NCBI GenBank assembly: GCA_963780185.1
Contig: CAWABA010000011.1
Span: forward strand, 32,001 to 96,000
DNA: 64,000 nucleotides
From: Candidatus Bathyarchaeota archaeon
GTDB taxonomy: Archaea > Thermoproteota > Bathyarchaeia > Bathyarchaeales > Bathycorpusculaceae
Direction of reading: 5' to 3'
The first letter of the stretch is position 1. The number at the start of each line of letters is the position of its first letter. The translations under genes were made by a program, and so were the position numbers. Positions 22,907-57,222 of this stretch are shown here, one piece after another. Under the pieces are notes generated by a model. The model worked only from the letters and a program-made list of their open reading frames with translations, did no database searches and was not told where the DNA came from.

Positions 22907-23350
22907 ATGGAACTGAATGAAACTGACCAGAAAATTCTGAAAAGCCTACTTGAAGATGCAAGGTTCTCCAGCAGGCAAATAGCCAAAAACGTAGGCGTAT
23001 CAGTCGGAACCGTTCTTTCAAGAATCAAAAAGATGGAAGACGACGGCCTCATCAGAGGCTACTCCGTCATCATCGACCATGAAAAACTGGGTTACCAGTT
23101 GACGGTGGTAACTGAAATCACCGTTTCCAAAGGCAAACTTGTCGAAACAGAAAACGAAATAGCGAAGATTCCAAACGTATGCGGCGTTTACGACGTCACA
23201 GGTTTAACCGACGCCATAATCGTTGCCAAGTTCAAAAGCCGAGAAGACCTCGGGCACTTCACCAAGAAACTGCTTGCGCTGCCCTTCATAGAGCGAACAA
23301 ACACACATGTAGTTTTAGCCACGGTTAAAGAAAACTTCCGCCTGCTCTAA
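22907..23350 (+). CDS. Lrp/AsnC family transcriptional regulator
   Basis: DQKILKSLLEDARFSSRQIAKNVGVS..RIKKMEDDGLIRGY, YDVTG. Confidence 0.95.
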   Translation: MELNETDQKILKSLLEDARFSSRQIAKNVGVSVGTVLSRIKKMEDDGLIRGYSVIIDHEKLGYQLTVVTEITVSKGKLVETENEIAKIPNVCGVYDVTGLTDAIIVAKFKSREDLGHFTKKLLALPFIERTNTHVVLATVKENFRLL

Positions 23351-23475
23351 CTACCCAATTTTTTAAGCATTTTCGCGTTTCCAGAGCGAATAGCCTTCAC
23401 CGCAAAGTAAAGCCTTTAAATGTCAAAGCAGATTCTATATTCCGCACTAGCCTCAAACAGCAACAAAACGTGCAT

Positions 23476-23563
23476 GCGGAGGTCGCCCAGCATGGCCAAA
23501 GGCGTAGGACTGAGGCTCCTATCCCGCAGGGGTTCGTGGGTTCAAATCCCACCCTCCGCACCA
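23476..23563 (+). tRNA. tRNA-Leu(GAG), CCA encoded
   Basis: Acceptor GCGGAGG/CCTCCGC, anticodon arm TAGGA-CTGAGGC-TCCTA, long variable arm, GGTTCAAATCC. Confidence 0.96.
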
Positions 23564-23590: not shown

Positions 23591-24073
23591 TTAACGGTGA
23601 TTTAATTCTTTTAGTAGAACTTTGGCTTCCAGCGGCAGCTGTGGTCTGTTTCTTCGGTCAACAGTTAAGAACACTGATCCTACAACGATTAGGGCTGCTC
23701 CGAAGAATGTCACGCTTAATATGGGAACAAGCTTCAGTTCAAGCCCGAGAGTGAAAGCGATTATTCCGACTCCGATAAGAATCATTACCGAGTTGCTTCT
23801 TGCCGCTGTCGAATGCAGCGCGAACTCTTTTTTTCCGTCTTCAGTCACGTAGTAGAAGCCTTGTTTTTCCTCTATCATGCCAGCGGTCAACAGGTAGTTC
23901 CAGTCATAGTGGAAATGGCCGTCGGACTTGTAGCCCAACGCGGAGCTTATGCTTGATTTGACTCCGGGTTCAGCCTTGATTCGGTTGTTTGGCGCGGAGT
24001 AGATGAAGTACAGCAGCTTTGTTCTTGGCGACTGAATATCAGCGCTTATTCCACGTGGCTTAGACACTAACAC
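23591..24073 (-). CDS. Putative membrane-anchored winged-helix protein
   Basis: N-terminal wHTH-like (YLLTAGMIEEKQGFYYVTEDGK) followed by two TM helices. Confidence 0.65.
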   Translation of the reverse strand: MLVSKPRGISADIQSPRTKLLYFIYSAPNNRIKAEPGVKSSISSALGYKSDGHFHYDWNYLLTAGMIEEKQGFYYVTEDGKKEFALHSTAARSNSVMILIGVGIIAFTLGLELKLVPILSVTFFGAALIVVGSVFLTVDRRNRPQLPLEAKVLLKELNHR

Positions 24074-24170
24074 CCACGGCTCCAGCTAAGCATACACGGC
24101 AAGATAAAGCAAGCTCTGCAACCAAATTTTCTTTCCATGATTTGACTATATTCTGCGGGTTTGCTTATGA

Positions 24171-24228
24171 CTCTAACCCTTAGAGCCGTGGCTCCAACCG
24201 TTAGGGCTGGAAATCTAAATGTTAGGGC
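24171..24228. promoter_or_regulatory. Three phased palindromic sites, consensus CTCTAA-N3-TTAGRG
   Basis: CTCTAAcccTTAGAG (24171), CTCCAAccgTTAGGG (24192), ATCTAAatgTTAGGG (24213); exact 21-bp period. Confidence 0.7.
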
Positions 24229-24289
24229 TATAACCAACAGTCCCCTTGTATGCTTTTCAGAAAACAAAAAAATTGGAGGAAAAAACAAA

Positions 24290-24988
24290 ATGGGTACAAG
24301 TTTCGAATACAGCAAAACATTGTGCGGCGAAGGATCAATCCTGCTGGTACTGGGTTTAGTTCCTTACGTCGGCTGGGTATTGGGAATCATCGGTGTAATC
24401 CTACTTCTCAGGGGACTCAAAGAAATTGCCCTTTACTATCAAGACAACGAAATCTACGAGAACGCGTTGACAGGCGTCAAATTCTACATAATCGCCTTGA
24501 TAGCAGCGGCAGTAGCCATTACGGGAATAGTTGTCGGCATCGGAACTGCAACAGGATTCAAATTTAATTCAAGCTTCACACTCACAGCAGGCTTCGGAAT
24601 CGGATTAGCAACTTTCCTAGGCGGAATCATCATCGCGTTTATATTCTACGTACTTGCGGCAATGCACCTAAAACAAACATTCAACACGCTCGCGCAGAAA
24701 ACAGGAGAACACTCGTTTGCAACAGCCGCATCGCTGCTTTGGTGGGGATCCATACTGACGATAATCGGCGTTGGCTTTATCCTGATATTCATCGCTTGGA
24801 TATTTGCAGTAGTCGGCTTCTTCACCATGAAATCACCGCAACGACAATCCGACGCTCCGCCACAATACAGCTACACTGCACCGCCCACCACATCACCGCC
24901 AACTCAAACCTCGCGATACTGCTCCTACTGCGGCGCACAAATAAAGCCAGATGCAGCCTTCTGCCCCAATTGCGGAAAACAACAATAA
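24290..24988 (+). CDS. DUF996-like membrane protein with C-terminal zinc ribbon
   Basis: GEGSILLVLGLVPYVGWVLGIIG, four TM regions, CSYCG..CPNCG; GGAGG RBS before ATG 24290. Confidence 0.85.
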   Translation: MGTSFEYSKTLCGEGSILLVLGLVPYVGWVLGIIGVILLLRGLKEIALYYQDNEIYENALTGVKFYIIALIAAAVAITGIVVGIGTATGFKFNSSFTLTAGFGIGLATFLGGIIIAFIFYVLAAMHLKQTFNTLAQKTGEHSFATAASLLWWGSILTIIGVGFILIFIAWIFAVVGFFTMKSPQRQSDAPPQYSYTAPPTTSPPTQTSRYCSYCGAQIKPDAAFCPNCGKQQ

Positions 24989-25142
24989 GCCAAAAAGAAT
25001 CCTCTCCTTTCAAGCCCAAAGCTTGCTGAGGAGAATTCTTCCATAAAACCTTTTTTTTATTGATTACATTTTAAAGGTAATTATTAGCGCCAGCGGTCGT
25101 GGGGTTAGACACAAAATATTAAGGAAGCTGCTAATTCAGTAG

Positions 25143-25616
25143 TTGGCGACCGCTATGCCGTTACCTGTCAGATACCATTTTAGTCAGCGTTTCGCTGTTT
25201 CCGCACAGAAAGCCTTCGAATGGTGCACCAGCTTTGACCCGCAGGACCACGCCTTAATGGGTGAAAAAGGTGCGAAGCGACAAGTGACCCTAGTCACCAA
25301 AGGCACGATAATCCTACTGGACGCTTTTCCATCAAAAACGGGCAAGGTTGAAAAACAGAAGCTTGTTCAACTCTACCCAGAAAACCTTTCATGGGTATCC
25401 ACGCATTTGACGGGACCAAACCAATACTCGCAGTTTCTGTACCAGATTTCAACCAGAGGCAAATCGGCTTCGGTTTTAGAGTTTACAGGTTTGCATTTGG
25501 ATTATGAGGGCAAAGAAGACAGTCGGGCACTTGCAACTAGATTGCGCAGGGAAGATGCAGCGGCGTGGAAGCTTTTGGCAAAAGCGATGAAGCGGGAGCT
25601 TGGCAAGAAAAAGTGA
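25143..25616 (+). CDS. Hypothetical protein (possible SRPBCC/START-like fold)
   Basis: 157-aa ORF; VSAQKAFEWCTSF and a C-terminal W-containing helix. Confidence 0.65.
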   Translation: MATAMPLPVRYHFSQRFAVSAQKAFEWCTSFDPQDHALMGEKGAKRQVTLVTKGTIILLDAFPSKTGKVEKQKLVQLYPENLSWVSTHLTGPNQYSQFLYQISTRGKSASVLEFTGLHLDYEGKEDSRALATRLRREDAAAWKLLAKAMKRELGKKK

Positions 25617-25653: not shown

Positions 25654-26848
25654 TTATCCGTTGACTGTTTTAGTGTTGCCGTAGCGACTTTGCAAGTTGG
25701 AGTGTTGGATGGGGTTTACGCCAGGTGGAAGGTGAACCACGATGTTGCCAAAAGTTACGGTGCTTGTCAAATTAACCTTGAAGTTCTGATTCACCGTAAT
25801 GTCAATGTTGTTTGAGAAAGTCCAAGCGCTAATACCCACAAACCCGTTTTCGATTCCATAACTATACGTGTTGTTCGGCTCTTGCGGTTCACCTTCATTG
25901 CCGCCGAATCGTGGATAATAATTGACGCCTCCGTTTCGGGGGACTGGACCGTATTGTTGAAGGAACACGGTGTGGCTGACTTGCGAGTTGTTGTTTGTGA
26001 AGTAAATGTTGATGTCTCCGTCAACGCTGCCTACAGCCAAATTCAAGGTAGTAATGTTGTTGGGAACTTGAGCGCTGTTTATGTAATGGCTTTCAGTTGC
26101 AACATAACTTGTCGTGTACGTTCCAGCCAAAGCAGAGCCAAAAAACAATATCGAAATAAGAAGCACCACAAGAGCAACCGAAGTAACTGCAAAACGCCGT
26201 AAGCCTTTGAGAACCAGAACACCCATCACCAGAAAAGCCGCGGAAATACTATACTCAAAAAATGTTCCAGACAAGGCAACCAAATAACTTAAGAAAATTA
26301 TGGCGGCTGAAACGCAATAGGGCAAAAACTGCTTCCTCCATAGAGATGGGTTAACCCTGATTTCTTTTTGATTCTTTGAGGACCAAAGCAAAAACCCCAA
26401 GAACTATCAATAAGCCAATTGCTAATGGCAAAATTCCTTGCACACTGAATAATGATACAGTAAACAGCGCGGGGAAGCCGAAAATGGCGTCGCCTGCCCC
26501 GTTTAAGAAGACAAAGAGAACGCCTAAGGCAACGAATAGTACCCCGAAGGCGATTCTGGGTCTGACCACAAAATTGTACTTGTAGAAAAAATATGCAAAC
26601 ACAATTAGGGCGGTTGAGCTGGCAAAGTAAATGATGGACATTGTGTATTGCCGCGTGGACAGATTGGTGACTCCTAAGAAAACACCCAGTAGGATAGAAA
26701 GTATCAGGGCAGTCAAGCGAGCCCCCTTGTCTTTCGGCGGCTTAGCCTTCGGCTTCTCAGAAGTGTCGCCCGTGGATCTTTTGGGTAGCGTTGGTTCTTT
26801 CGGAAGCCAGCCCCGAATGCGCGATTCCAAACTTTTCTTGACGTTCAT
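25654..26848 (-). CDS. IRGW-leader membrane protein 4 (~397 aa; one +1 indel near 26375 joins ORFs 26351-26848 and 25654-26400)
   Basis: Starts MNVKKSLESRIRGWLPKEPTLP; several TMs then an extracellular beta-rich domain; span is 3n+1. Confidence 0.75.
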
Positions 26849-28347
26849 GTTTTCAACTCTGTGGACGACGTGGGTGCGCTTTGCTTTTGCCTCGTTATCC
26901 AGGCTCCCAGCGCTTGCTGGGCTGGAATGGCAACGCTAAGCGCCAAAAGCGCCAATGATCCCGCCACCGCCGGAGTCGTGAATTGACTAAGAATCGGGTT
27001 GGACACTCTTGTCGGCACCGTCTCGTTTGTTCCCCAGGAGTACCATATTGAGATGTCCATTTGGTCGGGCACCACATAGTCGTAGTGCAGCCTGAAGTAG
27101 TAGGTCCCATTTTGCCACGGATGCCAAGACCTTGAAGCCCAATTTGTGACGTTATTTACGTAGAAGAAGATGTAAGGCGATGTCGGTGCTGAGGCAGACT
27201 GGTTCATTACTTGGACGCTGAAGCCTGACGCCTCGGTTTGATGAGGGCCTAGCTGGCGACAATTATCTCGAAGTCAACGTGGTCCGCCGTCGTCAGGTTC
27301 TGTACAACTTCAGAATCAGGTATGGGATGGCTGAGAGTGAAGCCATCCTGCGCTATGATTGCGCTATGGCCGATCGGGCGTCAACTTGGCTTCCACATGA
27401 TAGACAAAAGCCATCGAAAAGACAAGCATAACTATGCCAGACACCGCGAATATCACCCTCAGCGTTCTGTGCACATCAACGTTTGCCTCTTGTGAAAGTC
27501 TTCCTGTGAATGCATAAAACGTGGTGAAAACTGAAACCCCCATCATTGAGGTTTCAAAGTAGCCGACGGGATTGATGATTCTCAGCCACAGAAGTGTGCC
27601 AGCTGCAGCGACTACCGAACCCGACAGCGCCAGCAGAAGTATTCTGTAATTGTCGTTGAGCGCATGACGCTTTCTAAGCTCACGTACCCCTATCCCAAAA
27701 TACAGGCCCATCTGCGTCAAGAAAATCCCTGCGAGAGCGGGATTCACGCTGCTATTCCATGCGGCAAGGAAAACGAAAACTGAAGATAGGATGGGCCAAT
27801 ACACAAAATAGCCTATGCACGTCCAAAAATTCGCTGGAATACCTGCGAAACCCCTTCCACCCGGAGGTGGGGAAGGCTTCAGTGCCGGTGGATATTTTGC
27901 CAATTCCATTGCGCCGCTCGCAACCATCAAAAAAAATGGCAAGACTCCTAAAAGTCTGCAGGCTAAAATCGTCATTATGCTTGCGATAATCAGCAAGATG
28001 CCGCCTTGCCTGTTTTTTCTTGAGACCCCAACAAAAGCGATTATCGATGCCGCCCCGCCAACACCGGCGAAAACAAAGTATTGAATACCTGCGAGCTGAG
28101 GAAGGAGGTTGACAATTTCGTAATTGTTCAGAAACCTAAACGCGCCTAAGAAAAGCACGAAGAAAATCTGCCATGCAACTATCAGAACCGCAGATATTGC
28201 GCCAACTAAACCAAGAACATAACTTCTTTCCATTCTTGGCTTAGGCTCCTGTTTCTGGAAATCTATCTTGACTGGAGCCTCAGGAAGCTTCGGCTGTTGC
28301 GGGAACCAGCCTCTGATTTTTTGCTGCAAGGTTTTTTTTGCGTTCAT
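26845..28347 (-). CDS. IRGW-leader membrane protein 3 (~500 aa; compensating +1/-1 indels near 27375 and 27255)
   Basis: Starts MNAKKTLQQKIRGWFPQQPKLP; ORFs 27364-28347 and 26845-27207 are in frame and bridged by an open shifted frame (PIGHSAIIAQDGFTLSHPIPDSEVV...). Confidence 0.72.
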
Positions 28348-28377
28348 GTTTTCAACTCCGTATAGATTCAGAGAAAA

Positions 28378-29041
28378 TCATGCAGGCGCTCCTTGAACCT
28401 TCGTTAGTGACTTACGAGATTTGAGGTAAAGATATCCGATCCATAGAGTGCCCGAGCTAACGAGCATTGCTCCAGCGGTTCCAAATCCAATTGAGAAAAA
28501 AGGTGCAGAAGTCGATGCCAATGGATAAGAATACAAAACCGCGTTTGACACTGAACCCATAACGGCAAATGCCCCACCATTTAAGAAGCCAATTGCCAAG
28601 GCAAAACTGGTTTTCTTGTATCTTGTAAGATTCCGAATAGTTGGATTCATTAGATTAACTGAAGTAAGAATGAGCAGAAAGCTAGAAATAAACTACTGCG
28701 GCGGCACAGAAGGAAATGTCAAATACTGTACCATCGAGTAGATATTCGATCTCGTTCGCTTTCCATCCTGACATAATTAGGGTGTTTCTTTGGCTCCAAT
28801 AAGTTGAGTTTAAAGATGACCACAGCAACAACCCAATAAGAAGAACGGCTAGGCTGCCTCCAATCATGATGCCATTCAAAAGATTGCTTGAAGACCAAAT
28901 TAGAAAATTTTTGTTCTCCAGAGGCTTTTCATTAAAGACCGCTGTTCGTCTAGAACTTGGTGCTGATGGCTGTTTGGGCAGGTTTGGTGTTTTGGGAAGC
29001 CAGCCTCGAATGCGGTTTTCTAAGGTTTTTTTGACGTCCAT
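28378..29041 (-). CDS. IRGW-leader membrane protein 2 (~220 aa; +1 indel near 28690)
   Basis: Starts MDVKKTLENRIRGWLPKTPNLP; the shifted frame reads ISSFLLILTSVNL into MNPTIRNL. Confidence 0.75.
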
Positions 29042-29045
29042 GTTT

Positions 29046-29669
29046 TCAGCCCTGTAAACGGTTGATTTCATTCGTTCTTATGTCCATTAGTCGAGCGGCT
29101 ATTTGCTTGGGAATCAAATAGTGATACACAAGAAAGGTAGCCATCAATACTCCTATCCCTGTTATGTACAGGTCAAATCCTAGAGCCGAATATGGATGCC
29201 ATGAATAAAAGTCAGGTACACTTTTCGAAAGAGGATATGATATATAAAAAGAAGCAACGAAGACTCCTATGCTCATGAGAGCGAATCCAATTGAATTAGG
29301 AATTATTTCAAAAAACTTTAGTCTTCCTTTAAAACTAATTGTATCTCTGTACATTCTCAGATCTAAAGTCCCGAAAATTATTAAAAATGAGCAAAACCCA
29401 AAAATGGCAGCTAACAACGCCGTGTTTTGGACAACATCCAAATAAAAATAACTGTCGTTAAGTGCAAAAGTCCACAGTGTTCCTAAAACCAAGAAAACAC
29501 CAAGGTTAATCAAGACTATCGATTTTTCGATTTCTTTTACATCTTGTTTGTTCAAAGGTTTCGGGTTGGTTTTTGTCAGAGGAGCAGTATGTTGTATGGC
29601 GATGTCTAATTTCGGTTCTTGCGGGAACCATCCCCTAATTTTGTTCTCCAACTTTTGGGTGTATTTCAT
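29046..29669 (-). CDS. IRGW-leader membrane protein 1 (4 TM)
   Basis: Starts MKYTQKLENKIRGWFPQEPKL; ATGA overlap with the upstream HTH gene. Confidence 0.85.
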   Translation of the reverse strand: MKYTQKLENKIRGWFPQEPKLDIAIQHTAPLTKTNPKPLNKQDVKEIEKSIVLINLGVFLVLGTLWTFALNDSYFYLDVVQNTALLAAIFGFCSFLIIFGTLDLRMYRDTISFKGRLKFFEIIPNSIGFALMSIGVFVASFYISYPLSKSVPDFYSWHPYSALGFDLYITGIGVLMATFLVYHYLIPKQIAARLMDIRTNEINRLQG

Positions 29670-30157
29670 GCGCCCAACTCTGGAATAAGTTGGGTGAAAA
29701 TCATGTGTGCTAGTTTGGCTGGGTGGAGTTTCCCATGCATTCGATGGTCTATGCCTCTTTCTTTGGCGATGTCCAAGAGGTATTGCCGTGTTTGGGCGAG
29801 GAAGGCTGTGTCGGTTACTTCTTCGGGGTTGTCGTGCCAGTACCAGACTTTTAGGCCGTGGCTGGTGGTGTAGGTTATGATGGCTTTGAGTTTTAGGGTG
29901 GGGTGGTAGCCGAGGAGTATGGCTTGTTTGGGGTAGAGTTTGGTGACTTGGAGGTCGTTGACGGCTGCGACTTCGAGTAGGGTGCTGGAGAGTTTGGCTT
30001 CGGCGGTGAGGCGGGTTTGGTTGACGTATTGGCGGGTGGTTTTGAGTTTTTCTGCGATGTTGGTTACGGTGAGGCCTGTGCTGATTAGTTGCCAGATGAG
30101 TTTTTGACGTTCGCTCAGAGGCGAGGATACGGAGCAGTTTAGGGGCATAACGCTCAC
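29666..30157 (-). CDS. HTH regulator (LuxR / sigma-70 region 4-like N-terminus) with an unknown C-terminal domain
   Basis: LSERQKLIWQLISTGLTVTNIAEKLKTTRQYVNQT. Confidence 0.85.
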   Translation of the reverse strand: MSVMPLNCSVSSPLSERQKLIWQLISTGLTVTNIAEKLKTTRQYVNQTRLTAEAKLSSTLLEVAAVNDLQVTKLYPKQAILLGYHPTLKLKAIITYTTSHGLKVWYWHDNPEEVTDTAFLAQTRQYLLDIAKERGIDHRMHGKLHPAKLAHMIFTQLIPELGA

Positions 30158-30158
30158 G

Positions 30159-30190
30159 TGTAAATACGTATCTATTTACAAATATTTAAG
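30159..30190 (-). promoter_or_regulatory. TATA-like box plus perfect 8-6-8 inverted repeat (putative operator)
   Basis: TGTAAATA-cgtatc-TATTTACA at 30159-30180, between the minus-strand TTAAATA and the HTH start. Confidence 0.7.
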
Positions 30191-55902: not shown

Positions 55903-57222
55903 TCATTTTGCTCCTTTCAGCGCCATCGAAACGATTTTGGTCATGTGGGTTTCTGGCCCATAAACTTCAATGGGCACTCCGAGTTTTTCGCCGAGTTCCC
56001 TCATCTGGCATAGACCCTCTTGGTAGTTGGGTCCGCCTCTGCGCACGTAAATCTTAACCTTGTTCTCCTGCAGGTTCTTCTGGAACTCTTTGAGGGCTTT
56101 GATTATGCCTTTGAACGTGGCGGCGACGTCGGTGAAATTCGCTATTCCTCCGCCTATAAGCAGGAACTTGCCCTTCGGATGCGGCTTTCGGGTCATGAGG
56201 TCAAGGATTGTTTTCGCATAAAGATACGTGAATTCCTCGCTTGGGTCCCCTGAGTACTCGCCGTAATTAGCCAATTCATTCATGAAGCCAAGGTCGGTGA
56301 TGGTGTCGGCGTAGATGACTGAGGCGCCGCCGCCTGCAACCATTGTCCAGACTCTTCCTTCGGGGTTGAGAACTGTCAATTTGAGGGAAGCCCCCGTTTT
56401 TGAGTCCAAGTCTTCGATGAAGGCTTCTTCTTTGCTTAAGGCTCTGCCGAAAGGTGCTGGAAACTCGATGTTGCCCCATTTTGAGCCGCTTTCAAACTCT
56501 GCTGTGCTGTCCAACTTTGCGGCAAGGTCCAAGGGGACGATTGCATTCTTTGTTACTACAAACGGGTTAATCTCTAGGTAAGTGAAGTTTAGGTCCGCGT
56601 AGAATTTGAAAAGCGCTTCGATGAAGCCCGCAAGGTGATTTTTGCAGTTGGCGGATACTTTTTCTAGGAGTTTTTTCTGGATTTCCGCGGAGCTTGGATA
56701 TGTGCCGATTGGTACTTCTAGGCGCGATGCCTTGCTGTCCACGTCTCCGACGTTTACTCCGCCTTCATGGTAGAACAAGATGGTGTCGCCGTTCTTGTTG
56801 GCGGTGATGGCAAGGTAGCATTCATCTGAATCTTTATGCGGCGTCATCGGCTCGATGATGAAGTGTGTCAGTTGCCCCACGGTTCCTTTGCCCACGGGTT
56901 TGCCGTCGGAGTCAAAGCTGCCGTAGACAGTTATCGGTTCTTTGGATTTTTCTTCTATCCACTCTTTGGCTTGGTTGAAGTCTGCGTTGATAAGGATAAG
57001 CTTGTTTTTTCCTCGGCGTTTTATCAGCTGGTCGGGTTTAACAACCAGCTTTTCAGTGTTCAGCCACCCATATTGCTTGGGCAGCTTAGCCAAATCCGTG
57101 CTGGGTCCTACACTGATTATTTTGTCTGAGACCGAGTATTTTCCTTCAGAGTAATCTTTGAGCAGACGTGCAAGCATGCATTTTCCGTCAGCCTCTCGGA
57201 TTGCTTTATGAGCCATTCCCAT
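55903..57222 (-). CDS. aclB: ATP citrate lyase beta subunit
   Basis: LVVKPDQLIKRRGK, YLEINP, WTMVAGGGASV, NYGEYSG, GGGIANFTDV, RRGGPNY. Confidence 0.96.
   Translation of the reverse strand: MGMAHKAIREADGKCMLARLLKDYSEGKYSVSDKIISVGPSTDLAKLPKQYGWLNTEKLVVKPDQLIKRRGKNKLILINADFNQAKEWIEEKSKEPITVYGSFDSDGKPVGKGTVGQLTHFIIEPMTPHKDSDECYLAITANKNGDTILFYHEGGVNVGDVDSKASRLEVPIGTYPSSAEIQKKLLEKVSANCKNHLAGFIEALFKFYADLNFTYLEINPFVVTKNAIVPLDLAAKLDSTAEFESGSKWGNIEFPAPFGRALSKEEAFIEDLDSKTGASLKLTVLNPEGRVWTMVAGGGASVIYADTITDLGFMNELANYGEYSGDPSEEFTYLYAKTILDLMTRKPHPKGKFLLIGGGIANFTDVAATFKGIIKALKEFQKNLQENKVKIYVRRGGPNYQEGLCQMRELGEKLGVPIEVYGPETHMTKIVSMALKGAK

Follow-up and report, generated by a model that had tools for sequence, protein, structure and literature searches.

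The ECF sigma factors carry an HTH of the sigma-70-region-4 type, are co-transcribed with a membrane anti-sigma factor and are autoregulated. The anti-sigma contact is a helical domain of approximately 80–90 residues, and there is one dedicated partner. To our knowledge, archaea have no sigma factors. Type III secretion chaperones recognize N-terminal chaperone-binding regions on unrelated effectors and, in addition, act as transcription co-regulators. The LytTR regulatory systems (HdrRM, BrsRM) are described (PMC6193735) as widespread and uncharacterised, with some in archaea; a small transcription factor gene comes first, a transmembrane inhibitor gene follows, and autoregulation acts via repeats at their own promoter. 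EnfR, a Tfx-family regulator of Thermococcus onnurineus (PDB 8hno), is an archaeal protein of approximately 150 aa in which an N-terminal HTH is followed by a long 'stem' helix and a small alpha/beta head. According to the EnfR paper (PMC10570040), it binds as a dimer to a pseudo-palindrome in the promoter, and Tfx-family regulators are argued to lack an effector domain, the authors postulating an unknown protein anti-repressor.

The Bathyarchaeia DNA analyzed here, a stretch of 64,000 nt referred to as the window, carries on its minus strand a gene for a 160-aa HTH protein followed by four membrane-protein genes (g1 to g4), and a start peptide of 21 residues (the tag) is common to all four products. 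The features are as follows.

30183..30189, minus strand: TATA-like box TTAAATA, the putative operon promoter, directly upstream of the palindrome
30159..30180, no strand: inverted repeat TGTAAATA-N6-TATTTACA, putative operator of the HTH protein, between TATA box and start codon
29666..30148, minus strand: HTH regulator gene, 160 aa from ATG, with a LuxR/sigma-70-region-4/Tfx-like HTH and an alpha/beta C-terminal domain
29046..29669, minus strand: g1, membrane protein of 207 aa with tag and about 4 TM; ATGA overlap between its start and the HTH stop
28378..29041, minus strand: g2, membrane protein with tag, approximately 209 aa when its one indel is bridged (119-aa and 90-aa frames)
26845..28347, minus strand: g3, membrane protein with tag, approximately 500 aa when its two indels are bridged
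25654..26848, minus strand: g4, membrane protein with tag, approximately 400 aa when its one-base insertion is bridged; its start overlaps the g3 stop (ATGA)
29607..29669, minus strand: tag of g1, 21 codons
28979..29041, minus strand: tag of g2, 21 codons
28285..28347, minus strand: tag of g3, 21 codons
26786..26848, minus strand: tag of g4, 21 codons
29042..29052, minus strand: 11-nt element GGGCTGAAAAC, directly before the g2 ATG, one of three genome matches to a 14-nt motif
28348..28358, minus strand: 11-nt element GAGTTGAAAAC, immediately upstream of the g3 ATG, where it is non-coding
26849..26859, minus strand: 11-nt element GAGTTGAAAAC, directly before the g4 ATG, encoding the last residues of g3

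The layout of one HTH gene and four tagged membrane-protein genes agrees with an earlier note on this DNA, including all four N-termini as quoted there, and the tight packing that it described was recovered, with ATGA overlaps at some junctions and gaps of 4 nt and 30 nt at others. The HTH gene that the note had placed at 29666–30157 is likewise present, but its GTG start at 30157 was not retained; the ATG at 30148 is most likely the start codon, since the resulting 160 aa correspond to the length of the database homologs. The g3 product has approximately 7 TM, an outer domain rich in N-glycosylation sequons and a C-terminal TM, and the g4 product approximately 9 TM and a beta-rich outer domain. 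No Pfam or NCBIfam family above cut-off was found for g1, and residues 44–127 of g3 gave a weak match to DUF4064 (E=2.7e-4, below cut-off).

The HTH of the regulator spans residues ~13–66 (numbering of the 163-aa GTG ORF). Its family matches are weak, confined to the HTH part and below cut-off (GerE, E=0.0014; TIGR00721 tfx, E=0.0012), and the best PDB sequence match is EnfR (8hno, E=0.003, residues 8–60 only). The AlphaFold model (pLDDT 88.3, pTM 0.81) gave no Foldseek match at E<=0.001, either as the whole regulator or as residues 42–163, and Foldseek TM values to 8hno were 0.31–0.36. Searches of Pfam, NCBIfam, PDB and the literature returned nothing for the C-terminal domain. Among 1488 regulator homologs, the few with an organism name are all from Bathyarchaeia/Bathyarchaeota. 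The regulator resembles EnfR in size, in an N-terminal HTH that continues as a long helix ahead of a small alpha/beta head, and in its putative binding to a palindrome at a promoter as a dimer. It differs from the Tfx family in that there was no TFX_C match, and TIGR00721 scored 18.8 bits against a cut-off of 60.25. The head is beta-alpha-alpha-beta-beta in EnfR and predicted to be beta4-alpha2 here. Seven canonical TFX_C genes were found in 151 Thermoproteota genomes, and none of the seven is followed by a tagged membrane gene.

The locus resembles the ECF/anti-sigma pairs in that a small DNA-directed regulator is co-encoded with membrane protein(s) in what would be an autoregulated unit, with a proposed N-terminal cytoplasmic contact. 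It differs from them in that the regulator joins a single HTH to an alpha/beta domain of unrelated kind, contact is proposed to be made by a linear peptide of ~21 residues, one regulator is followed by 1 to ~10 unrelated membrane proteins, and the only visible target is the operon itself. The gene order of the LytTR systems is similar, whereas the DNA-binding family is LytTR there and a Tfx/LuxR-like HTH here. In the LytTR systems, direct repeats upstream of the -35 element mediate positive feedback, and there is a single membrane partner with no common portable tag; in the window, the palindrome is located downstream of the TATA box, which is a repressor position. The type III secretion chaperones are alike in logic, with one small cytoplasmic protein, a short N-terminal region common to unrelated proteins and a free pool that sets transcription. 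They belong, however, to another domain of life and to other protein families, the clients here are integral membrane proteins rather than secreted effectors, and clustering of the ORFs from 77 loci revealed no secretion apparatus encoded near the tagged loci.

The tag of all four window genes follows the consensus M-x5-L-x3-I-R-G-W-[FL]-P-x2-P-x-L. M1, L7, I11, R12, G13, W14, P16, P19 and L21 are invariant in the alignment of the four products, and almost nothing is conserved beyond residue 56. The tag is far beyond chance: a six-frame regex search of the whole genome yielded 13 matches, only five of which were both N-terminal and tag-like, and all five are located behind an HTH paralog. In the database, G-W occupies residues 13–14 in 112 of the best 120 matches to the tag, and these matches are spread over 29 body clusters. 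This fixed register on many unrelated bodies supports a portable tag, as the earlier note had proposed for its leader peptide. The note knew of no named family for the motif, and we found no Pfam, NCBIfam or PDB match and no paper on it either.

Genomic linkage was assessed in the 66 related loci whose sequence extends for 200 nt or more past the end of the HTH gene. A tagged ORF starts between -40 and +120 nt from the HTH stop in 57 of these loci and within 6 kb in 61; most of the loci missed in the count have variant tags. The tag was matched 101 times in 350 kb downstream of HTH genes, as compared to 29 loose regex matches in 1929 kb elsewhere. All five G-W-x-P tags and all three WCPQPP tags in this genome are found behind HTH paralogs, and in five other genomes 17 of the 19 matches to the tag profile immediately follow an HTH gene of the same strand. 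When 1445 ORFs from the 77 loci were clustered, the HTH family formed the largest cluster and, beyond the clusters of tagged proteins, nothing recurred broadly in both locus types; the next cluster was a generic ABC ATPase at 15 loci. Thus, the tag is tied genomically to the HTH family and to no other conserved neighbour, an association that the earlier note had left to be examined.

Tag type follows regulator type. HTH proteins without Cys occur with G-W-[FL]-P tags that have a hydrophobic residue after the W (type I, 38 loci), and HTH proteins with three Cys occur with W-C-P tags that have Cys after W/Y (type II, 30 loci); no mixed loci were observed, although this match rests on few independent events: the two types are two clades, and their co-variation in Cys amounts to little more than one evolutionary change. 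Both types coexist in this genome. Two body families bear either tag type, depending on the neighbouring HTH type (a NosD-like pair, E=3e-19, and a PQQ-propeller pair, E=7e-48), which indicates that tags were exchanged without their bodies. A third clade of HTH proteins with three Cys has a partner with a different, Cys-free N-terminus, and two HTH clades have no tagged neighbour.

The clade-specific palindrome TGTAAATA-N6-TATTTACA is present upstream of the HTH gene, with at most two mismatches, in 42 of 44 type I loci and represents the putative operator of the HTH protein. TTAAATA-like boxes precede it in type I relatives, and with the loose regex T[TA]AAA[TA]N a box was found at most 14 nt from the palindrome in 32 of these 42 type I loci. 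Type II paralogs carry another palindrome, GCTTAC-N3-GTAAGC, at the same place (18 of 23 loci). The type I palindrome has a single match in the whole genome at up to one mismatch, and the only visible target is therefore the operon itself. The idea of the earlier note that many membrane sensors feed one regulator is not supported insofar as it implies targets outside the operon. If this is the only operator, there is no visible output of the circuit beyond the tagged proteins, a point against the docking model described below.

The anatomy of the operon, the linkage, its exclusivity, the co-variation of tag, regulator and operator, and selection on the tag at the protein level are established. 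Taken together, the data point to a pattern, recurring across Bathyarchaeia, in which membrane proteins may be coupled to a gene switch by a route that is so far undescribed. We consider it slightly better than even (probability about 0.55) that the tag docks the operon's own autorepressor, in a pairing like that of anti-sigma factors or LytTR inhibitors, but via a portable peptide. The operon would then be a self-contained regulatory module of the class Bathyarchaeia. Its first gene would encode a small dimer-type protein with a Tfx/LuxR-like HTH and a C-terminal domain of its own kind, which may bind the palindrome between the TATA box and its own gene start and repress the operon. Each later gene encodes a membrane protein whose first ~21 residues, presumably located in the cytoplasm, may serve as a short linear docking peptide, in which G-W-[FL]-P-x-x-P comes after a stretch that is basic and amphipathic. 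Reading of this peptide by the operon's own regulator, to which a predicted complex lends weak support, could tie the regulator to the membrane or change its DNA binding, and transcription of the operon would depend on how much of the tagged membrane proteins is present, or on their state. The protein anti-repressor postulated for Tfx-family regulators in the EnfR paper is in line with this reading. The tag is a portable element that has been placed on many unrelated bodies, with a chemistry matched to the regulator paralog.

Binding of the leader to the HTH protein, for which the earlier note had tentatively named the C-terminal domain as the site, was addressed by one complex prediction of the HTH protein with a 45-aa tag peptide, which gave a median of 0.57 (0.00 for the best of three controls) and was graded 'weak support'. 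By its own calibration, a prediction of this grade is likelier to be false than true, except where the pairing was already probable. Contact agreement among the runs was at least 81% and partner pLDDT at least 48. The calibration set had 80 solved complexes, 58 of which reached the mark, and 110 mismatched pairs, two of which did so; only seven of the 80 solved complexes, but both passing mismatches, reached it with a score of 0.60 or under.

Given the weak support for the predicted complex, the tag might instead be read by an unlinked cellular factor, such as a protease (with the tag as degron), a factor for targeting or membrane insertion, or an enzyme that modifies it, the HTH protein only controlling transcription of the operon without contact to the tag. 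The invariant W, the P-x-x-P and the basic N-terminus could fit many peptide-binding modules, and one tagged ORF (G127:C39) is an orphan: over the preceding 2.5 kb, its strand carries no ORF of 80 aa or longer, and hence no HTH gene. However, the clients of a general factor would be expected genome-wide, yet all eight tags in this genome are in HTH operons, and no second gene is broadly conserved in both locus types. Moreover, the tag chemistry switches with the HTH paralog inside one genome, so that an unlinked reader would need matching paralogs, and we regard this explanation as improbable. Similarly little credence is given to ordinary, fast-diverging tandem paralogs with a topogenic or structural N-terminus, for example a cytoplasmic amphipathic anchor that sets orientation, and no regulatory role. 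Membrane proteins diverge fast, and g1 and the C-terminal half of g3 both match the first tagged gene of locus L051 (tblastn, tag included). At least two members of one body cluster are present in 8 of 22 arrays, which suggests that part of the array growth is ordinary duplication. Against this explanation, the tag-less window bodies, which differ in TM count and length, show no mutual BLASTP match better than E=0.34 and fall into four different clusters of the 31 obtained from 94 tagged ORFs (the g1 body is a singleton); the four do not align as full-length paralogs, an alignment that the earlier note had named as refuting its reading. Profile HMMs of clusters 0, 1, 3, 4 and 5 did not reach other clusters, with one exception outside the window, and the Pfam folds among the 94 ORFs are unrelated (six PQQ propellers, three NosD beta-helices, no family for most). 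In addition, homologous bodies bear different tag types, and confinement to HTH operons would not be expected of a generic topogenic element.

The conserved unit could also be a nucleic acid, with the 11–14 nt before the ATG and the coding start acting as a translation-coupling or regulatory RNA/DNA element and peptide conservation being secondary. The shared upstream DNA reported by the earlier note for three genes is real: the 14-nt motif G[AG]G[TC]TGAAAACATG has three matches in the 2.75-Mb genome (both strands), all in the window operon. It is kept both where it is coding (before g4) and where it is intergenic (before g3), and resembles, with one change, the Shine-Dalgarno complement GAGGTGA of the 16S 3' end of this genome. 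In type I relatives, the 11 nt seen before the g3 ATG (GAGTTGAAAAC) constitute the junction of the HTH 3' end and the first tag. However, a GAGTTGA-like element is kept before only about one third of 32 listed internal type I tags in relatives (counted by eye), and the sites upstream of type II tags are ordinary ones of the GGTGA type. Pairs of window tags are alike at 11–16 of 21 residues, 5–7 of which use different codons, and Arg12 has a different codon in each of the four tags. The coding part is thus conserved as protein, the codon pattern indicating selection at the protein level, and action of the unit as a nucleic acid is very improbable. With the same codon differences, and with only 11–14 nt retained before the ATG, recent recombination of the shared 5' DNA is not supported as the way in which cassettes accumulated, as the earlier note had suggested they could.

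Four one-base indels split three of the four tagged genes. For g2 (29041..28682 and 28650..28378), one indel near 28681–28690 was seen in a three-frame junction reading against relatives of 203–204 aa (L015_10486, L016_11481; 35% identity, first half). For g3 (28347..27364, a linker and 27207..26845), indels are located near 27376–27380 and 27248–27257, and L007_9295 (369 aa), L051_10480 and L040_11968 have its C-terminal TM half, linker and outer domain in one frame. For g4 (26848..26351 and 26400..25654), a one-base insertion is located near 26371–26377; L017_12499 (402 aa) is a single open frame that shares 79% identity with the first part and 94% with the second, and the orthologs of L051 and L007 are also single frames. 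Because the relatives carry unbroken frames, the repair of the indels in the earlier note was justified. The window copy may lack function, since three of its four tagged genes are frame-broken and another copy of HTH gene plus tag, located on contig C5, is degraded. Decay of the module in this genome, with real indels and with g2, g3 and g4 as pseudogenes or truncated products, is compatible with any of the explanations above; we consider it unlikely, though a good deal less so than the alternatives to docking. Four frame breaks inside 4.5 kb, the in-frame stops and frame changes in the C5 copy, and the absence of the HTH family from 4 of 11 other same-genus genomes (94–98% completeness), which suggests that the module is dispensable, are in its favour. 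On the other hand, every displaced frame is still open over 90–248 codons and the g4 tail shares 94% identity with its L017 ortholog, which fits assembly indels or very recent events. A further frame split relative to L017 is present outside the operon, near 23459, and hints at indel noise in one assembly.

The operon lies on the minus strand between positions 30189 and 25654, where a TATA-like box and a palindrome of 22 bp (30159-30180) precede an HTH gene and four genes for membrane proteins (g1 to g4), all tightly packed. The source genome comprises 2.75 Mb in 13 contigs, and the named closest homologs of the window proteins belong to Candidatus Bathyarchaeia or Bathyarchaeota. The HTH reading frame was listed from a GTG codon at 30157, but the 160-aa homologs in the databases begin at the position of the ATG codon at 30148, which is taken as the start of the gene. 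The four membrane proteins share an N-terminal peptide of 21 residues, M-x5-L-x3-I-R-G-W-[FL]-P-x2-P-x-L, hereafter called the tag. Residues M1, L7, I11, R12, G13, W14, P16, P19 and L21 are invariant in the four-way alignment of the products, with little conserved beyond these.

Four one-base indels are found in the 4.5 kb of the operon, with break points at 28681-28690, 27376-27380, 27248-27257 and 26371-26377, and every displaced frame is still open. Their repair in the earlier note was borne out by the uninterrupted frames of relatives. The orthologs of g4, which are the first tagged genes of three related loci (L017, L051 and L007), run in a single frame through the segment that forms a separate 248-aa frame in the window, and the L017 protein shares 79% identity with the first part of g4 and 94% with the second. 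In L007, L051 and L040, the C-terminal membrane half of g3, the linker and the 120-aa outer domain are encoded in one frame; two compensating shifts are needed to read the same protein from the window. The two g2 pieces combined have the length and layout of relatives of 203–204 aa. A further gene in the window (23227-23563), which matches one ORF in L017, is split over two frames near 23459, showing that the two assemblies differ by indels also outside the operon. Since the displaced frames are open and a further split is located outside the operon, we lean towards assembly noise as the source of the four indels; that the window copy is instead decaying, a question separate from that of the mechanism, is possible but somewhat doubtful. 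One public DNA run, and no RNA run, was listed as sharing words with the stretch (0.06 share for the DNA run); its four short contig pieces cover 25654-25768 and 29778-30076, away from all the break points.

The bodies of the four membrane proteins, with about 4 to about 9 predicted transmembrane segments, appear to be unrelated, as the earlier note had claimed. When the first 30 residues were removed, no BLASTP match among the pieces was better than E=0.34. Tagged ORFs with a minimum length of 70 aa, 94 in total (four in the window and 90 in related loci), were grouped by single linkage (E<1e-4) into 31 clusters, with g1 to g4 in four different ones. Apart from one case outside the window, profile HMMs of clusters 0, 1, 3, 4 and 5 detected no members of other clusters. 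A relationship of g1 to the g3 family was suggested by a tblastn search that included the tag, and was rejected as neither tag-free BLASTP nor the cluster profile HMM supported it. A Pfam search of a second set, also of 94 sequences (five window frames and 89 locus ORFs of 100 aa or more), identified PQQ-type beta-propellers in six and NosD beta-helices in three, and no common family in the remaining sequences.

The tag is closely linked to the HTH gene, both within the source genome and in its relatives. A six-frame search of the source genome for R-G-W-x-P returned 13 matches, of which five were N-terminal and tag-like: four in the window and one on contig C5, directly after a degraded HTH paralog. 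Behind each of two further HTH paralogs on contig C6 (33–34% identity) lie membrane proteins with an N-terminal W-C-P-Q-P-P, a string that occurs three times in this genome, always after these two paralogs. Among 66 related loci, a tagged ORF starts between -40 and +120 nt from the HTH stop codon in 57 and within 6 kb in 61, which supports the genomic association with the HTH family proposed in the earlier note. These 66 were retained from 78 loci fetched with the HTH alignment because the HTH frame was found by a regular expression and at least 200 nt followed downstream; eleven were dropped since the expression failed and one since too little downstream sequence was available. The misses, inspected by eye, were mostly variant tags. 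In a whole-genome search of five other genomes with a tag profile, 17 of 19 matches came immediately after an HTH match of the same orientation, and one of these genomes contains an array of 10–11 tagged genes.

The largest array observed (L113, G157:C1:458000-465500) has one regulator and behind it, over 6.3 kb, 10–11 tagged genes of 100–394 aa interrupted by a single untagged ORF. The second type I copy in the source genome, at about 107500-108100 on C5, has its HTH paralog in three frames with TAA, TGA and TAG stops, and its tag ORF ends after 21 residues with two in-frame stops. No operator palindrome was found at this copy at up to two mismatches. It looks like a real pseudogene.

Tags and regulators fall into two matching types. 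Regulators more than 60% identical to that of the window have no cysteine after a conserved W-Y-x-H, and in their tags F, L, I, V or Y comes after G-W (type I, 38 loci). Regulators of the group with 31–38% identity have C-x2-C-x6-C at the same place, and their tags have a cysteine after W or Y (type II, 30 loci). There were no mixed loci, and 20 loci had no tag by the regular expression. The two types represent two clades, and the locus counts thus do not correspond to as many independent events. More telling are two body families found under both tag types, each tag agreeing with the adjacent regulator: a NosD-like pair with E=3e-19 and a PQQ-propeller pair with E=7e-48. Both C6 regulators (56561-56995 and 880339-880773; L003 and L004) are intact three-cysteine forms with their own palindromes. 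The first has one W-C-P-Q-P-P-tagged membrane protein behind it and the second has two, and one of these proteins has a NosD-like beta-helix region. Since these type II copies coexist with type I, a single cell would harbor two orthogonal tag systems. Further HTH clades display more W-C-x-x-P tag variants, and two clades have no tagged neighbour.

The interval from the TATA box to the start codon is the region in which archaeal repressors act. The palindrome TGTAAAYA-N6-TRTTTACA is present immediately after the TATA-like box upstream of the HTH gene in 42 of 44 type I loci, and GCTTAC-N3-GTAAGC occurs at the same place in 18 of 23 type II loci, with one subclade having its own variant. The type I palindrome has no second copy in the source genome at up to one mismatch, and the two extra matches at two mismatches are chance-like. 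The operon therefore appears to be the only target of its regulator. The type II form is found at the two C6 promoters and at C3:5324, inside a coding region, and a regulon beyond the operon was rejected on these grounds. The suggestion in the earlier note that many membrane sensors feed one regulator, if taken to include targets outside the operon, was not upheld, as no further operator site was found in the genome at up to one mismatch. A scan of the operon with bacterial promoter and terminator consensus sequences returned 8 promoter and 7 terminator sites, where 5.4 and 6.2 were expected; it was discarded since such a scan is unsuited to archaea.

The family matches of the regulator were weak and confined to the HTH part, with GerE, sigma-70 region 4 and Tfx all below the cut-off. 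For Tfx (TIGR00721) the score was 18.8 bits (E=0.0012, residues 12-50 only; 23.5–24.5 bits for the C6 paralogs) against a curated cut-off of 60.25 bits; for the Pfam GerE family it was 18.6 against 23.5 bits, and for the region-4-like TIGR02937 it was 16.8 against 42.9 bits. No match to TFX_C (PF14601) was obtained in the regulator at E<=0.1, or in a six-frame search of the entire source genome, in which 10 candidates were scored. Canonical TFX_C genes were identified in seven of 151 Thermoproteota genomes, and a tagged gene is located behind none of the seven. The nearest ESM Atlas clusters consist of unnamed Bathyarchaeota proteins; Tfx clusters scored 0.87–0.88, which is a lead rather than evidence. 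In the confident AlphaFold model (pLDDT 88.3, pTM 0.81), two short helices and one of 25 residues are followed by four strands and two further helices. Foldseek aligned the HTH to GerE-type domains with a probability of 0.98–1.00 (for instance 7vim_A, TM 0.84 normalised by target). At E<=0.001, nothing in the PDB matched the whole model or its residues 42-163 (best TM about 0.3).

The module was also compared with known systems in which a membrane partner controls a regulator. No sigma-70 region 2 was found in the regulator, and neither an anti-sigma domain (ASD/ZAS) nor any other family matched the tagged N-termini, which separates the module from ECF sigma/anti-sigma pairs. PadR/HAAS pairs consist of a PadR-type winged HTH regulator and a HAAS-domain membrane partner; searches of Pfam and NCBIfam with the regulator identified neither PadR nor a LytTR domain. 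For all 8 ORFs, PADLOC (E<=0.01) returned no anti-phage defence family. By sequence, the closest PDB entry was EnfR (8hno; E=0.003, residues 8-60), a Tfx-family regulator of Thermococcus onnurineus. The EnfR paper describes an 'eighth-note' fold composed of an HTH flag, a long stem helix and an alpha/beta head (PMC10570040). With its HTH, stem helix of 25 residues and alpha/beta head, our model recalls this layout, but its strands and helices are arranged in another order, and the Foldseek comparison with 8hno gave a TM of 0.31–0.36 at a probability of 0.63.

We propose, with a probability of roughly 0.55, that the HTH protein acts at the palindrome as a repressor of its own operon, that the membrane proteins encoded downstream each dock onto it through their N-terminal peptide, and that expression of the operon would thereby be set by the amount or state of the tagged membrane proteins. 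A complex prediction from the HTH alignment and a 45-aa tag alignment was graded as weak support, with a median score of 0.57; three controls scored 0.00 at best. At least 81% of contacts were common to the runs, and the partner had a pLDDT of 48 or more. When the method was calibrated, 58 of 80 solved complexes and 2 of 110 mismatches passed the mark, seven of the former and both of the latter at 0.60 or below. Such a mechanism would resemble the working of an anti-sigma factor or of the membrane inhibitor in LytTR systems (PMC6193735), but the module belongs to neither family. The mechanism fits the proposal of the EnfR authors that an unknown protein partner controls Tfx-like regulators (PMC10570040).

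Three other explanations of the tag were weighed against docking onto the HTH protein. That the conserved element is a nucleic acid is very improbable. A common upstream DNA had been noted before three of the genes, and the genome-wide search recovered this 11-nt element, directly before the start codon, at the following positions of the minus-strand operon.
26849-26859, minus strand, 11-nt element directly before a start codon
28348-28358, minus strand, 11-nt element directly before a start codon
29042-29052, minus strand, 11-nt element directly before a start codon
Together with the ATG, it forms a 14-mer that occurs nowhere else in the genome; in relatives, the same 14-mer joins the 3' end of the HTH gene to the first tag. 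The element is retained in coding and intergenic settings alike, and is more strongly conserved than the synonymous sites of the tag. It is possibly a Shine-Dalgarno variant (one mismatch), a coupling element or a recombination scar. For the tag itself, pairs within the window are identical at 11–16 of 21 residues, 5–7 of which are encoded by different codons, and Arg12 is encoded by four different codons in the four tags. This difference in codons at shared residues shows that selection acts on the peptide.

A plain paralog family with a topogenic N-terminus is also unlikely. Two members of the same body cluster were found in 8 of 22 arrays, so duplication does occur; all members differ in the other 14. 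The tag has no Sec signal-peptide layout in the four window proteins, where the first hydrophobic segment begins at residues 45–54 after a Pro/Lys-rich linker, and no twin-arginine or pilin-type motif was seen in the tags inspected by eye. A tag-profile search of 5.8 billion proteins (7999 candidates scored, 194 with E<=10) gave G-W at residues 13–14 in 112 of the best 120 of the 194, and the bodies of these best 120 formed 29 clusters, none with a precomputed Pfam domain. The view of the leader as a portable module on unrelated bodies thus gained support, and its description as a motif outside any named family agreed with the Pfam and NCBIfam searches, which matched no family at the N-termini of the tagged proteins. 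We also consider it improbable that the tag is read by another factor. The remaining two of the 19 tag-profile matches in the five other genomes correspond to one ORF with no HTH gene in the 2.5 kb upstream. When 1445 ORFs of 77 loci were clustered, the HTH family was the only non-tagged family to recur broadly in both locus types, followed by a generic ABC ATPase in 15 loci.

Beyond docking at the operon, the regulator may exemplify a new archaeal signal or feedback class, a 'tag-reading' transcription factor, an extension that we regard as doubtful. Any membrane protein with the peptide would be enrolled under one small regulator by a transferable address that is kept orthogonal between paralogous systems of one cell. 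In the putative ancestral three-cysteine form, the invariant tag cysteine would complete a Zn or Fe-S site with C-x2-C-x6-C of the regulator, and this intermolecular metal clasp could be sensitive to redox state or metal supply. The cysteine-free type I of the window would have swapped the clasp for a hydrophobic W-[FL]-P contact. If true, this would supply the missing class of protein partners for Tfx-like regulators. If the tag is a docking peptide, it would provide a simple, testable rule for coupling a small archaeal repressor to many membrane proteins, a natural orthogonal peptide/reader pair usable as tools, and a candidate for the postulated partner of Tfx-type regulators. The question can be answered without culturing, since peptides, one 160-aa protein and a 22-bp DNA suffice.

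The HTH family was identified in 57 of 201 sampled Bathyarchaeia genomes, representing 16 of 87 genera; the maximum was 4 regulator matches in a genome and about 10 tagged genes in an array. The module is common in a globally abundant, uncultured class. Seven of 11 other genomes of the window's genus contain the family; the four without it are 94–98% complete. The open full-text literature, which excludes subscription journals and supplements, gave no description of the motif or of tagged membrane arrays beside Tfx-like regulators, and occurrences of the motif strings in four papers were chance matches, judged by titles. Nor was an archaeal membrane-partner device of the anti-sigma or LytTR-inhibitor kind found there, and we know of none apart from two-component and one-component systems.

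Several loci show variation in gene content. Two genes directly downstream of the window array (24167-25613) are located about 3.3 kb upstream of the HTH gene in L017, the closest relative (region compared, 23594-25616), and g4 is the only one of the four cassettes with a close ortholog there. Array content and position thus turn over between genomes with 86% identical regulators. Convergent to the window array, 24161-24988 on the plus strand encodes an untagged multi-pass membrane protein; its tail is rich in Pro, Thr and Ser, and its C-terminal end, C-x2-C...C-x2-C, is zinc-ribbon-like. Three type I loci (L022, L033 and L039) have a Zn/Mn-type ABC set (ATPase, permease and solute-binding protein) on the same strand after the array; a general link was rejected, as it was confined to these three and other members of that ABC cluster were scattered. 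The HTH match in L053 (9926-11542) extends only to about residue 94, beyond which the frame runs on as a 539-aa open frame; this may be a fusion or a frame error. In a more distant three-cysteine HTH clade (L088 and L100-L104, from G174, G075, G151, G157, G098 and G144; E about 1e-17 to 1e-24 to the profile), the partner is always one conserved membrane protein of about 250 aa, with a cysteine-free N-terminal motif rich in K, P and S.
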